Assembly: GCF_033153115.1 (NCBI RefSeq)
Contig: NW_026889803.1
Span: 62,496,001 to 62,560,000 of the forward strand
Direction: 5' to 3'
Length of the DNA stretch: 64,000 bases
Origin: Saccostrea echinata
Lineage: Eukaryota
A program made the translations under genes and the position numbers. Position 1 is the first letter of the stretch, and every line of letters starts with the position of its first letter. The notes beneath the pieces are model-generated. The model was not told where the DNA came from. It did not search any database and saw only the letters and a list, made by a program, of their open reading frames with translations. Below are positions 29,749-37,820 of this stretch, in pieces.

Positions 29749-32700
29749 ATGGACGATTCGGCTGTTATTGAGAAGCTCGGAAAGAAAAGGTTAGTGATTT
29801 TTTACTCGACCATGTGGCGCCTTGTTTAATGACCCTGTTTTCTCTGCAACTGGGTTTCAGAATTCGTCAAAATTACCTTCATTAAAGTATTTAATCCATT
29901 TTAAGTACAATGATATGTAAGGTTCTTTATTTGAGATCACCGAAATATAAAAGTTAGTTTGGTTACGACACGAAGGAAATTTTATTTTAAAATATAAAGA
30001 CTGGAAAAAAACCTATTTAAAAACTATTGAAGTGTGGCTGCCAAATCGCAGTCATGTATTCTATTTCAATAAGTTTATGCATTTTCTGCCCTGTTATCAT
30101 ATCTCTATTTGTGCCTGGGTTGTTTTACCTCAGTTGGTTACCAAGGCGTTTTGATAAAATTTCTCTGTAACATTTTGTTCTGGATACAAGGTGCGAAGTT
30201 TCACAAAGGGAAATTTTACAAGAATGTCTTTTCTTGGCATATTAAGGTATTTATGTAGAGCTTCACTAAGTGACAGCATTATTCAAGGCATTGCCTAGTG
30301 ATACATACGAGGATAGTTTTAGATATATTTTTCTTCCACCCACAGTTTATTTTACGTCTTTTTTAGATTTAGTTTATTTTCTTGGCATTTCTGGGTTATG
30401 ACGTGAGCATCATTAGTCATCTCGCTTTGTCGAAAGCACACTCCATTTCTTCATCTTTTCTGTTGATTTCACATTCATACAATATTCTAAGCCACTTAAG
30501 CTAAAACTTTAGGCACTCTCCGTACAACCATGCACATAATTTTATTTTCTGACCAGAAAGTTGTTATCGTGTGTATATACACTGCTTAAATTGAATCAAG
30601 ATATGTATCTAATGTAGATGAAAAGATTATCTTTTTCCCGCCGCTGCTTCAGCGGTGGATGATTAACAGTGTTATGTCATTAAGGAATTTTGTGGGTAGG
30701 ATTGCCTTGATTATAAGAATACTGAATGCTTCGTGTTCAGTATAACTGTTTTAGCTTGTTCTTATTGTTCACGAGCAATTGAAATATCTGTGGTTTTGGA
30801 ATTCTTTTGATCATTGCATTTCTAGGTAAGGGCTTATAATTGTCTTTCATGTTTTATTTCTTTTTTACTAACTATTAGGACTTGAAACGGGAACTTAGTA
30901 ACTCATTTCGTGAACAAAATATTTCCACAGTAAATTATCACAGACTCCATGCTTTAATAACTCATATTCTGTCTTACGGTTTACTTTTGTCGGAATTCCT
31001 CTGTTATAAGTATGACCGAAATAGAAACAATAAGTTATTATTACCAGGTGTTATGGTAATAACTGTAAGACCTGCAGGTCTTTCGTTCGTGCAGACAAAA
31101 CTCTTTCTGAATGAATTTTTCTTTCAGTAAGATTTCAGTTTATTCGAGTCGTTTTCCTCTTATGTGATATATGACATAGAACACGACTGTGACGTAAGCA
31201 CAGGAGATAACCCCCTGCTGATATTTAGATAATTGCCACGCTCTCAGCTGCTAGTTTTACACTCACGTGTTCGTAATGACCACATTGTGGAGATTAATGA
31301 TAATCCTGTGTTAATTAATGATAGAATATTGCCTGATTGGTCTTTTTTTTCTATGATATTTTTTTATTTGTAATAATATGTTTAGAAACAAAAAGGCTAC
31401 CGACTGGAAGATAACATTACACGCACCGTTTATAAAAAAGCTCATCCTATCTTGAAGAAAATAAGATCTGATGTTATATGCAATATCCACTTCTCTTTTT
31501 CTCTCTTTACCCCCTTATAACCAATTCATAATACTATTTAACCAACTTATTTAATATTATCAATATTTCGTAGTAGGGAATGAGTGGGTATAAGTCTAGA
31601 TATACAAAAACATGATGTTCATCTATGAGTGTATTTTGTTTGTAATTTACTATAGAAAAATGAAAGTTATAAAAGAGAACAGAAGTTAAAATGTGCAAAA
31701 GCATGATCTTCAACTACGTCTGTATTATTTGGAAAATATATGAAAACGGAATTTGTGTCGCAAATACACCGCAACATTTAAAATTTAATCATACATTTGT
31801 ACAAAACTATTAACAAGAATTTTATTCCAACAGAAACATATTGCTTCCGGTTGCTATTTGTAGTTACAAGCAGACGATTAATTATCATGCAGGCAGATGC
31901 CTTTATAAGACTTCTTGATTAACGATGCTCAACATGCTTCAACTAGCCTGGATTAACAAATATATAGCTGGAGTACACTTTCTTTCAAATAGCCATCCGA
32001 GCAAATTTATCGTTTTATTGTGTGTGAGAGAGAGAAAGATAGAGAGACCTTATATCCATTGATTTCATTATGCTTATAGATACTTCATTATGCTTACAGA
32101 TACTTGTACAATCAAGAAGTCCTGTGTTGGCTTAATTGTTTCATAAACGTACACATTATAATTAACCCCGTAATCGGCCGCCTAAATGCTGTGGCTCGTG
32201 TCAATGTTATATTGACACTACCTGAAAACTTTTGAATAGTCTCACAGGTGCCATGTCTTGCATGTCAGTGGTTGCGTAAAATGAAAAGAATGTTTCGTAT
32301 TTCTCCAAAGAGTTAGCCTGTGATATTGAACAAAGCATTGCTCTTTTAATTTTAATTTTCTAAAAGGTATGGTTTCGAATCGGTATATGTAAAAGGAAAA
32401 GAGATCACATCTCTTTGACATATAACTATGCCAATACGTAAATAGTTTAATTTAAATATACGTTGCATTGAAAATTGATTGACGGATTCTAAAATGCTCT
32501 TATACAATATGTCTGATACATAATATCTTTGGATATGCAGGAGGATCTATATACATATGCAAATTTCTTTACTAAAAATTAAAGTGTCCTTTCCTTTTTT
32601 CTGCAGGTATCGTCGAAGACAAGAAAGAGAGCGCTACCACACTACCGCCATTGACATTAACCAAATAAACGCCGCCGCAATGTCCGCCTCGACCACCACC

Positions 32701-34347
32701 ACCGCCACCACTTCAACTTCCACCCCCGGGGGTAACAAGCTTGCGCAGGAAATTAACGACGAATTTCTTACATGCAAGATTTGTTTGGAATGCTACAAGA
32801 ACCCAAAATGCCTCGACTGTCTGCATACTTTCTGCGAACAGTGCATCGATAACCATATCATGAATGAATGCACCTATAAGAAGTATAGCGACTACCGAGA
32901 ATTTACATGTCCACTATGTCGCAAAAGAACACAACTACCACTAGGTGGCGTCAAGAAACTTCCGGACAACTTCCTTGTTTCGAGTTTGTCAGAGCTTGTT
33001 CAGCGACAAAGACCTTCCAAATTTCCATTCTGTGACATCTGCAAGCTTGTCAACAGAAAGCACAGAGAAGCGACTTCAAAATGTTTAGATTGCAACAAGC
33101 TACTCTGTAAACAATGTGTAGAAATGCACAAAGAAACGAAAGTCACGAAAAATCACAGCATTTTTGATGTAGAGATTGAAAAAGATATTGAATGCAAAGA
33201 ACATTCGGAGGAGGTTGTTCGTTTTTACTGCGAACCTTGCGAGGCTTGCATCTGTGTTCTCTGTACGTTCAATGAACATAAGGATCACGAAATCACTCAG
33301 TTTTCGGAGGCAGTTGTTAAGTACAAGGAGAATATTCAGTATCTTCTCGACGACTGCAAGGAAAAAATTGCTACATACGACACTCAGCTAGAAGCTTTGT
33401 CTAAATGTGAAACCGTCATTCGTAGTACGGAACAAAAGGTTAGAGACACCGCTATCCAATTCATTGCTGATATTCGAACGAAGGAAAAGAAATTGATCGA
33501 TGATTTACACGAGATCTATGGATCAGACGTCATGGATTATGTCTCAAAAAGAAACGATATGCAGACAAATGTGGATAGCTTAAAGAGCACGTGTAGTCTA
33601 ACTGAATTGGTTTTAAGAGGCAAAGACATAGAACTTTTGCTTCTCAAAAAGCAAGTTCAAGAAAAATTGTCTGGATTATCAGAGATTGAATTGCGAGAAT
33701 TGCCAAAAACTGTGGAGAAGAATATCATATTTATTCCAGGAGGGTTAGACATGGGAAGCTTAGAAGACGCAGATAACTCACAGCAAGGGAAAATTCGCAA
33801 CCAGAGAACGTTTGCAAGTATAGGATCACAAAGAAATGTCCCCGCCGATCCTCCAAAATTTTACCGTACATTTTCGACACAAACGGAAGACGTTTCGGAT
33901 CCAGAGAAGCCTACTTTCGTAGAGATATATGTACAAACGGATGTTTTCGGAGCTGGAACCAATGGCGAGACTACTGACAAGTCAGTAGAGACGGACAAAG
34001 TCGATTTTCAAGACAAAGGGGTCAACACACGATCACGCAGCTTACAGAGTGTATCTGGGATACAGCCAATTCCAAGATCGTCCTCACGTGACGAGAATAA
34101 CGCCAATGGCGAGACGAACTCCCATGGAGAACCAATGTCTCCTACTACTGCAAGAAGACATAGAAGGCGTCGCGAACGTCCAAAAATCGAAGTCTCTTCC
34201 CGACCGACCACTAACCGACCGTCGACACAAGGGGTGATGGTAATGAACTCAGGCGGCGGAGGAGGAGGAGCATGCCCAGTTCTAACCTACAGTAGTAGCA
34301 TCGACGAGAATTACTTTAGTCCAGAGGGCAGTATCACGTCTCCATGA
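29749..34347 (+). CDS. TRIM-family E3 ligase (RING-Bbox1-Bbox2-coiled coil; TRIM56/TRIM2/3/45-like N-terminus, disordered tail); join(29749-29789,32607-34347), ~593 aa
   Basis: RING CKIC..PKCLDCLHTFCEQC..CPLCR; B-box1 CDIC..CLDC..LCKQC..H..H; B-box2 CKEH..FYCEPC..ICVLC..HKDH; then a coiled coil. Upstream exon MDDSAVIEKLGKK-ag|GT joins CAG|G in phase 2. The first exon is less certain than the main exon. Confidence 0.88.
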
Positions 34348-35600: not shown

Positions 35601-37484
35601 CATATAGCGAAAATAGTTTTATTTTTAAAATCACATAAACAAATCATGACCCCATGCAGAAAAAAAAATATTTGAAGTTTTCTATACAAACATTTTCATG
35701 TAGTGGAAATAACGATAAAAAAAAAGAATGGTTGGTCGGGCAGAAAGGAGTTCAAAGTTTTATATATAAACAAACAGGAAAAAATCTTACAGAAAATTAT
35801 CTACATCCTACAAATTATCAAATGTAGGTATCTTAAATAGTGAAGATGGGATTTCAATATCCTTTACACGTTGGGCCACAGGTTCTAAATTTTATGTAGG
35901 AATATTTTTGTTATTCTTTTTTAATCAAAACTATTATCTCCCTCTCAAGATAAACAAAATAGCACATATGTTCAACAGTATAATATCAGGTCTGTGCAAG
36001 TAAGTGTAATTTCAGCATCCCCCACTCCAGAGTCAAAATTGTCTAAGCACGAATATTAAGAATTGTCAATCTATTTAGGCACCTGTCCCTCCCTCATTCA
36101 AAGTCTAACAAATAATTGTATTTAAAATATTTTTTCCAAGTTCATATCCGATACTACACAGAGTGAAGACAACTATTCCTTCTTTAAATCAGAAAAAAAG
36201 AAATATGTTAAAAATCTTAAGGGTTTTAAAATATTAGTTTACGGAGAAACTACGTTCATAAAATGGAATTTTGATATCGTATCTCTGAATATATGAATAA
36301 AACGAAAAATTTTCGGAGACGTCTCCCCTCCCCCAAGAGTCAAGACCTCCAGTTAATGTCCAACAAAGCAGGTCAGTGGCAGATTTTTGCGGGGGCACAC
36401 CCCAACAACCCATTAAGAAAGTCTTGATAAAACTCACATTAAATTTTTGTGAGCTCTATTGTCATTTAAACTTGTAAAAGTTTGCGCCCCATTCTTAACA
36501 GTTAAATCACGAATCCTCCGCTTGATGTTTTAACATCTATTAATAATATTGAAGAAACTTATACGTTAGAAATACTTTATCGCATGATAAGGAAGATTAT
36601 CTACTGAAAGATAATTTTATAACGAAAAACAGATGTGGTCTCCTTCGGAACATGTGTTATTATTACTCTAGATAAAAAATAACATTACTGATTTATTGAA
36701 ATATTAAATCTCTTTCAATATCAGGGCTTGAGAGATTTTTTAAAATGACATAAATGAAAAATTTTACTGTTTGAATATTTTTTAAATATTACTGAAATGT
36801 ATGTTGTAACTTAGTATTAAACAAGATTCAACTATCAAAACTGGAATTCCTTGATTCCTACAAGAACAACCCTCAATGAGGTAAACTTTGCTGTAAATCC
36901 TATTTCAACATTTCAACAGTCCAGCTGGAGACATCATTTCTGGTGATGTGGTACCGGTATACCACAAAATCATTTTTATGTCACTGAGGTCAATCTGATG
37001 TCATATTGCTATGCTACGCACTGCTATTCTTTTCTGTCACTGTTCATTGTCGATTGTAAACTTTTGAACATTTTCAGTTTCCACTCTGAATTTACTGAAC
37101 CAATATCAACTAATTTTTGTATATAAAGCATCTAAGGACAAAGGCAGACAAATTTTATGGCCCTTGCTCCTGAAGGGTGGGACCAAAACCATCAAAATTA
37201 TTGCAATAAATGAAGGAATACGTTGTTTAACATCAAAGACAACTGCTTCCTCAATAAAAACGGAACTCAGAAATTTCCATATCTTCTGATTGGTTATCTA
37301 TAAAATTACTTTGTTAAAAATCACTCTGCTTCTACACACAAGTACTCTGAAGTTGATATCAAAAGGATGCTGGAGTTCTCACTGACTACATTAATGAAGT
37401 ATTCGGAGACCAGGTCTTCCAACAAATTGTTGGAATTTCGATGGGCAATAATTATGCTCCTTTATTAGCCGACCTGCTTTTATT

Positions 37485-37820
37485 TAAGGAATAACTGTCT
37501 ATTTTTATTTTTGGTTTTATGGTGTGATCAAGTGATTGGCTTGCGTGATAATTTGCATAAACGCCGAAGGTGTTTATGCATAAAATAACCAAGCAAGCCA
37601 ATCGCTTATCATCATCATAGAACAAAAAACTGACAGTTATTCCTTATATTTACATGATTCCGTTCACGTGCTCGATCCTAACCCCGCCCAATTCTCTTTC
37701 TCGCTCCGCCCGTGATTTTTTTTACAACGCCTATCGATTAACTAAGAGCCTTATGAAGAAGTAAAGGTTTTAATGATCTGTAGTTTTATCTCGGACAAAG
37801 AAATTTGAAATGTAAATATA
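37485..37820. mobile_element. ~335-bp hairpin element with an internal complement of its end-start junction
   Basis: Interrupts the RT codons L|YSYE. It starts TAAGGAATAACTGTC, ends TGTAAATATA and has internal GACAGTTATTCCTTATATTTACA at 37632-37654. Confidence 0.8.

Follow-up and report, generated by a model that had tools for sequence, protein, structure and literature searches.

A high-copy 336-bp repeat of Saccostrea echinata is very probably a non-autonomous Crypton whose ends suggest recombination as a folded single strand

The window analyzed here (the whole stretch of 64,000 nucleotides of Saccostrea echinata DNA) carries at positions 37484-37819 (+ strand) a 336-bp repeat that we consider, with little doubt, to be a real, high-copy non-autonomous Crypton. 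The repeat is likely moved by the tyrosine recombinase (YR) of CryptonA-type elements that reside in the same genome and share its end layout; their assignment to CryptonA, as opposed to CryptonV or other animal groups, is tentative. Further, the arrangement of its parts leads us to favor, on balance, a mode of movement in which the element would recombine as one folded DNA strand, much like an integron attC site. The preliminary description of this DNA had already proposed a non-coding, multi-copy passenger of a tyrosine recombinase and not a miniature element (MITE) with terminal inverted repeats (TIRs) and a target site duplication (TSD), and that proposal is supported by the genomic copies, the YR-encoding relatives, and the empty sites. 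For this single copy, inserted as it is in a dead retroelement, there is no evident host function.

The element sits inside a decayed fragment of a high-copy, RT-like retroelement (37206-38403, + strand, composed of 37206-37483 and 37820-38403), and the split of an RT reading frame that had been read from the sequence is borne out by paralogous copies of this host repeat, 9 of 11 of which read through the insertion site and 2 of 11 of which have small deletions there. This fixes the insert at 336 nt, with nothing duplicated, and the empty paralogous sites place its extent one base to the left of the ends first given (37485-37820). The Pfam RVT_1 match of the host repeat, found on a paralogue, is weak (E 0.046); judging by its motifs the repeat may be Penelope-like, and a first look at the genome returned 4,494 candidates for it. 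Elsewhere in the window, a 607-codon open frame with RING and B-box domains (32524-34347, + strand) marks a TRIM-like gene, and a second, unrelated inverted repeat of 111 nt that is 82% complementary lies at 11904-12014.

The internal 23-mer of the element occurs at 745 exact sites in the genome and the main right-end 20-mer at 708, with no match to the reversed control of either; such numbers greatly exceed chance, and the repeat is not single-copy, the outcome that had been named as fatal to the proposal. A genome search gave 1,390 first-look candidates, and the 40 that were scored are all full length at 79-100% identity. The copy in the window is diverged (86% identical to its best match and 79% to the main, 347-bp subfamily); the median nearest-neighbor identity among copies is 98.8%, which indicates that the family spread recently. 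Boundaries were examined in 91 complete copies from 102 loci, 70 of which had been picked by the internal 23-mer; 86 of the 91 start with TT and 90 end with TAT, an end that the right anchor overlapped. The left flank is other than TAT in four copies (L007, L028, L162, and L194), which pins the cut position and hence the element at 37484-37819. In an empty-site set of 15 copies, from which 3 microsatellite and 4 tandem self-matches had been removed, the commonest offset was 0 for 13 copies (2 of these 13 being weak matches) and +4 and -2 for the other two. Filled and empty sites thus differ by a clean insertion without a TSD. Among 79 target sites, a 3-bp duplication was found in 2 and one of 5-6 bp in none, and TSD models of 1-6 bp were rejected on the flank counts and on the empty sites at offset 0; a 2-bp match that 30 of 79 sites show once the boundary is shifted does not amount to a fixed duplication. 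The element has neither terminal inverted nor terminal direct repeats, its ends not being inverted copies of each other, and with TIRs and a fixed-length TSD both lacking, a TIR/TSD MITE was discarded. Spy transposons, which the excerpt consulted describes as making no TSD, were set aside because the element is without TIRs. We note that one copy is nested in another of the same family at offset 0 (L002/L044) and that copies of different families lie within (TA)n microsatellites (L016, L169, L200, L218, L077, and L242), in a manner that fits the target consensus described below.

The left end of the element begins with a 7-nt spacer, TTAAGGA (37484-37490, + strand), which is predicted to form the longer side of a 2-nt bulge in a folded site, followed by a left-end arm (37491-37499, + strand) that is a predicted recombinase-binding arm and resembles the right arm of the target consensus. 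These parts largely fall within a long hairpin, the 5' arm of which (37485-37565, + strand) is supported by folding and by compensatory pairs across copies. The hairpin is capped by a C-G-closed GAA triloop (37566-37568, + strand), a mini-hairpin type of loop according to the account available in PMC13037366, and its 3' arm (37569-37645, + strand), identified by folding, terminates in the left-end half of an internal, inverted copy of the end-to-end junction. This mirror copy (37632-37655, - strand) is made up of a left-end arm (37632-37640), a 5-nt spacer (37641-37645), and a right-end half (37646-37655). A non-coding body without any open reading frame of at least 100 codons follows (37656-37809, + strand), and the right end (37810-37819, + strand), a predicted arm beside the cut, is complementary to 37646-37655.

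The mirror copy had been described as an exact inverted copy of the junction formed by joining the two ends over a shared TA. As claimed, the 23-mer at 37632-37654 is complementary to both ends, over 15 nt on the left (37485-37499) and over 11 nt on the right (37810-37820), but the internal copy falls 2 nt short of the true head-to-tail junction. A gapped junction pattern has four matches in the genome, namely three tandems, all of which carry the longer form, and an internal copy. The mirror copy is therefore not an exact circle junction, and a shared TA core is ruled out by the empty sites as well as by the tandem junctions. The single genomic match to the junction form originally proposed (L117) turned out to be an internal copy read backwards. 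In every family in which junction and copy could both be measured, the mirror copy is 2 nt short. The tandems in themselves were rejected as proof of circles, since in 3 of 3 a member of the T-A subfamily lies on the left and a member of the A-T subfamily on the right; members of different subfamilies fit re-insertion at the right junction and not a rolling-circle concatemer.

The single hairpin with a GAA cap that had been recognized in the first part of the element holds: the first ~165 nt fold with -46.7 kcal/mol as DNA (z -11.2), and 0 of 200 shuffles were as stable. Two arm positions co-vary between subfamilies, one being A-T in 57 and T-A in 14 of 76 scored copies and the other T-A in 71 and G-C in 4 of 75. 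The fold also appears to favor one strand. Mismatches shared within the arms of 17 families, read on the top strand, are G.A in 24 cases versus T.C in 2 and G.T in 11 versus A.C in 3, although the G.A count is not independent (tandem pairs in families A, B, and D contribute 15 of the 24) and the query family itself has no G.A mismatch, only one T.T and one A.C. The top-strand loops are GNA/GNNA or T in 16 of 17 families, and GNA-type mini-hairpins have, in the portion of PMC13037366 consulted, a much higher stability as DNA than as RNA. The two strands differ little in energy, and the bottom one is favored in 3 of 17 families. The strand favored by the fold is the one that the target geometry predicts to be cut, and the hairpin predicted for the element is imperfect, with unpaired bases on one strand. 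Flipped hairpin tips, comparable with flip/flop isomers, were observed in the query family (L005, L167, and L150), in family C (L109), in family E (L084 versus L085), and in L111.

To define the target, 12 of the 91 copies with microsatellite or tandem flanks were removed, and the remaining 79 sites yielded a consensus of A at -2 and T at +8 (71 sites each), T at -3 (59 sites), and A at +9 (47 sites). Complementarity between the arms peaks at a spacer of 6 bp (0.51 versus 0.28-0.36 at other lengths; n = 79), and the short derivatives of families A and D likewise reach 0.58 (n = 16; 21 of 22 loci scored) and 0.55 (n = 23; 26 of 27 loci scored) at this length. The target is thus two-fold symmetric about a 6-bp spacer, and the element is inserted at the left edge of this spacer; at the site in the window, the left arm of the host DNA is 37478-37483 (+ strand), and the 6-bp spacer (37820-37825) and right arm (37826-37831) follow the element (37820-37831, + strand). 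Cre and XerCD sites usually have two arms around a 6-bp overlap and are cut on the top strand at its left edge. Measured from the cut, the query family, family A, and family D have a spacer of 7 nt in the junction, 6 in the target, and 5 in the mirror copy, with the cut uncertain by one base in A and D, where element and target alike have A as their first spacer base; C, C2, L098, and L100 have, by eye, the same spacers of 7 and 5.

The two junctions inherit their spacers differently, the left keeping the 7-nt spacer of the element and the right that of the target. Among 69 copies picked only by the internal 23-mer, the left junction has the element spacer in 61, is degraded in 2, and has no left arm in 6, so that the target spacer was found on the left in 0 of 63 scored copies. 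After standard two-strand exchange by a YR, many copies should have the target spacer at their left junction. The element spacer follows the right end in 9 cases, set against at least 708 right ends; three are tandems and six are not, two of the latter being identical, which gives 5 distinct non-tandem events genome-wide. In the six non-tandem cases, the left junction also carries the element spacer in 3 and is unscorable in 3. The first six bases of the element spacer are present on the right too in 2 of 79 targets, where 0.16 would be expected (P ~0.01). These two-sided cases exceed chance and count against a strictly one-sided exchange. Right junctions at which the element spacer comes next although no second copy is present were recorded at L004, L176, and L289-L293.

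Candidate partners were sought through DUF3504 matches in the genome (309 candidates, 150 scored), from which 80 recombinase loci were taken. At 46 of the 80, the 1.3 kb downstream of the open reading frame contain a long hairpin, at least 3 of these hairpins coming from other repeats; the other 34 have none nearby. In the multi-copy families A, B, C, C2, D, F100, F104, and F105, whose right ends were set by copy boundaries (for D also from its tandem), the inverted far end comes directly after the inner arm. The long elements measure ~2.0-2.9 kb, the recombinase is the sole frame of at least 200 codons in the 7 loci listed, and no RT or RNase H was found in them. DUF3504 scores above the cut-off in 6 of 6 recombinase proteins and Phage_integrase in 5 of 6; the catalytic R-H-R-(H)-Y residues are present, by eye, in the frames of families C, C2, and A, and the HxxR motif was located by script. 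Alignments with homologues reveal an intron-like gap within the gene that is kept in near-identical copies of families C and C2. A 510-residue homologue of the recombinase has a predicted structure (pLDDT 79) with a fold nearest to Cre; in the structure search, the integron integrase ranks 48th and was not singled out as the closest fold. The nearest named homologues are oyster, scallop, and mussel proteins, and a protein combining DUF3504 with a BTB domain of the KCTD1 type (P0111) is among the homologues. Of the kinship with DIRS elements and Cryptons suggested earlier, the Crypton class stands (YR only, with an intron) and DIRS does not.

The long elements most similar to the repeat in the window share end motifs as well as the layout with it. 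In families C and C2, the last 9 nt are identical to those of the query family and the first four bases are the same; L143 agrees with that family at 18 of the first 20 positions and in the tip of the hairpin, and its coding region is split over two frames. End motifs and layout are common to the query family and to C, C2, L100, and L143. The search for long, YR-encoding copies that had been recommended succeeded as regards the layout but not as regards a parent: no intact, near-identical element with the query's exact ends was present among the 80 loci or found through a protein search with L143, the nearest being L143. L150, considered as an autonomous parent, proved to be one of the short copies, which had inserted next to a recombinase gene. 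Other Crypton-like families likewise have short hairpin elements that cluster beside recombinase elements (L085, L099, L110, L114, L131, and L147). At the family C locus L092, positions 4190-4289, 4 of 4 runs skip 100 nt with GT..AG ends antisense to the recombinase open reading frame, and one contig passes unspliced through the sense intron; the contigs carry no strand, and the gap is possibly a spliced antisense transcript or else a deletion allele.

We note that the mirror copy tracks both termini, as had been proposed for verification. When the mirror copies of nine families (including the query family) were compared with right ends, own-family matches summed to 103, a value reached by 6 of 362,880 permutations, which is not a clean probability because the families are related. 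Single-base changes in the mirror copy and in the end move together between C and C2 and between the long and short forms of A. The query mirror copy matches its own right end at 10 of 12 nt, and the ends of related families match it no less well.

From these observations, we propose the following mode of movement. The top strand, freed during replication, would fold from the GAA loop, and pairing of the mirror copy with both ends would create a recombinase site of two arms and a 2-nt bulge. The ends would then presumably be joined by the recombinase into a top-strand circle. The circle would exchange solely its own strand with the top strand of the target, and host replication would resolve the junction. 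In such a scheme, the 2-nt bulge may relax the requirement for homology between spacers, and the recombinase would act poorly on the double-stranded forms of 7 bp and 5 bp, thereby setting the direction of the reaction. The donor would not be lost (copy-out, paste-in), so that copy number would rise, and a 6-bp site would be restored at the right junction, in keeping with the three tandems. No end-to-start joint was seen in contigs of public runs, a kind of data uninformative on absence, either on a family C element among the 2 joints listed for it or on the short element among the best 15 of 59 joints.

The published proposal for Cryptons, in the parts of PMC3212892 consulted, is movement as a double-stranded circle (the Goodwin model), in which case the mirror copy would be an accessory binding site or an aid to cruciform formation and the one-sided spacer would arise from biased repair. 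The Cre-like fold and the few copies with the element spacer at both junctions agree with such an exchange, but it should often have left the target spacer on the left, where none of the 63 scored copies has it, and the element spacer is present at no more than 9 of the right ends, which number at least 708; moreover, the fixed 7/6/5 spacers, the strand bias of loops and mismatches, and the compensatory pairs would go unexplained. We therefore regard a non-autonomous Crypton moving in this way as unlikely. A functionless by-product of template switching at a palindrome would account for the mirror copy without any role in movement, and the tips flipped in a few copies show that palindromes do rearrange; however, the right-end half of the mirror copy lies outside the hairpin and nonetheless tracks an end 0.2-2.7 kb away across families, and 88 of 91 copies retain the core unaltered (that very 23-mer had served to pick 70 of the 102 loci), which makes such an origin highly improbable.

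Two further readings place the element in other classes. It could be a DIRS-like retro-passenger, its RNA copied by an RT in trans and its mirror copy serving as the internal complementary region (ICR) that closes a cDNA circle. Complementarity to both ends is what the available account of the DIRS ICR describes (PMC6681497), and the folding strand, being antisense to the recombinase mRNA, would be the strand of a first cDNA. Against this, the partners are only ~2.0-2.9 kb long with the recombinase as their one sizeable frame, near-identical copies of C and C2 keep the intron-like gap in the gene, inverted terminal repeats are missing, and a circle templated by the ICR would have 334 nt, yet 336 nt were inserted; we consider this very unlikely. 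Insertion without target duplication, AT-rich targets, hairpins, and tandem copies are also what a rolling-circle passenger of the Helitron/Helentron type would display, but the long elements found with these ends encode a tyrosine recombinase and not Rep/helicase, the target is symmetric about 6 bp, and the mixed subfamilies of all three tandems fit re-insertion, so that a passenger of this type is scarcely credible.

If recombination as a folded strand is correct, it could extend beyond this family. Whether animal Cryptons as a group are single-strand copy-and-paste transposons, in which the two ends and the mirror copy form an integron-like folded site with a programmed bulge of 2 nt (7/5 versus the 6/6 of the target) and a Cre-like enzyme swaps one strand only, is in our judgment evenly balanced, as is the corollary that the DIRS ICR may descend from this device. 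Because ends, target consensus, and spacer rule are defined in three unrelated families, oligonucleotides and a single protein would suffice for testing the mechanism. Should it prove right, eukaryotes would own a folded-single-strand recombination system akin to integrons, the copy numbers of Cryptons would be explained, and an origin for the DIRS ICR would be suggested. The signature of a hairpin plus a mirror copy also lets unclassified palindromic repeats be assigned.

Among known systems, the closest are the CryptonA elements and their derivatives. In the portions of the two accounts consulted (PMC3212892; Kojima 2018, PMC5753468), these are alike in having a YR with DUF3504 as the only enzyme, an animal host, no TIRs, long elements of ~2-3 kb, and short derivatives that measure 350-550 bp and are far commoner. 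Kojima and Jurka 2011 (PMC3212892), as excerpted, found animal Cryptons without terminal repeats, which they listed as n.d., saw no conserved DNA between the Cryptons of different species, and cited a circular excision model; in the sources searched, insofar as their text was accessible, how Cryptons move was not shown. Compared with the published animal Cryptons as described there, the elements reported here stand out by their terminal hairpin and junction mirror copy, by a target that is both defined and symmetric, and by one-sided inheritance of the spacer. The layout of hairpin and mirror copy was not found for Cryptons in the open-access literature searched, and Repbase entries may already note hairpins. 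DIRS elements (PMC6681497 and PMC13465315, as excerpted) are alike in an internal stretch complementary to both termini and in integration by a YR, whereas here there is no RT/RNase H, there are no inverted terminal repeats, the partner bears an intron, and the mirror copy is 2 nt short and lies beside a terminal hairpin. Certain bacterial YR elements resemble our proposal in that one strand is circularized and no empty donor is left; the features described for these elements of four core genes, in the summary available, do not include a mirror copy of the junction. Finally, the recombinase fold here is nearer to Cre than to the integron integrase IntI, and the proposed site differs from attC in being eukaryotic, self-encoded, and built from three places of the element. 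Its common ground with integron attC sites (PMC2727003 and PMC4792948, in the parts consulted) is a YR whose predicted substrate is a folded single strand that has unpaired bases, and with attC and the CTX phage (PMC3442271, likewise in part), the predicted exchange of one strand with a duplex target that replication then resolves.
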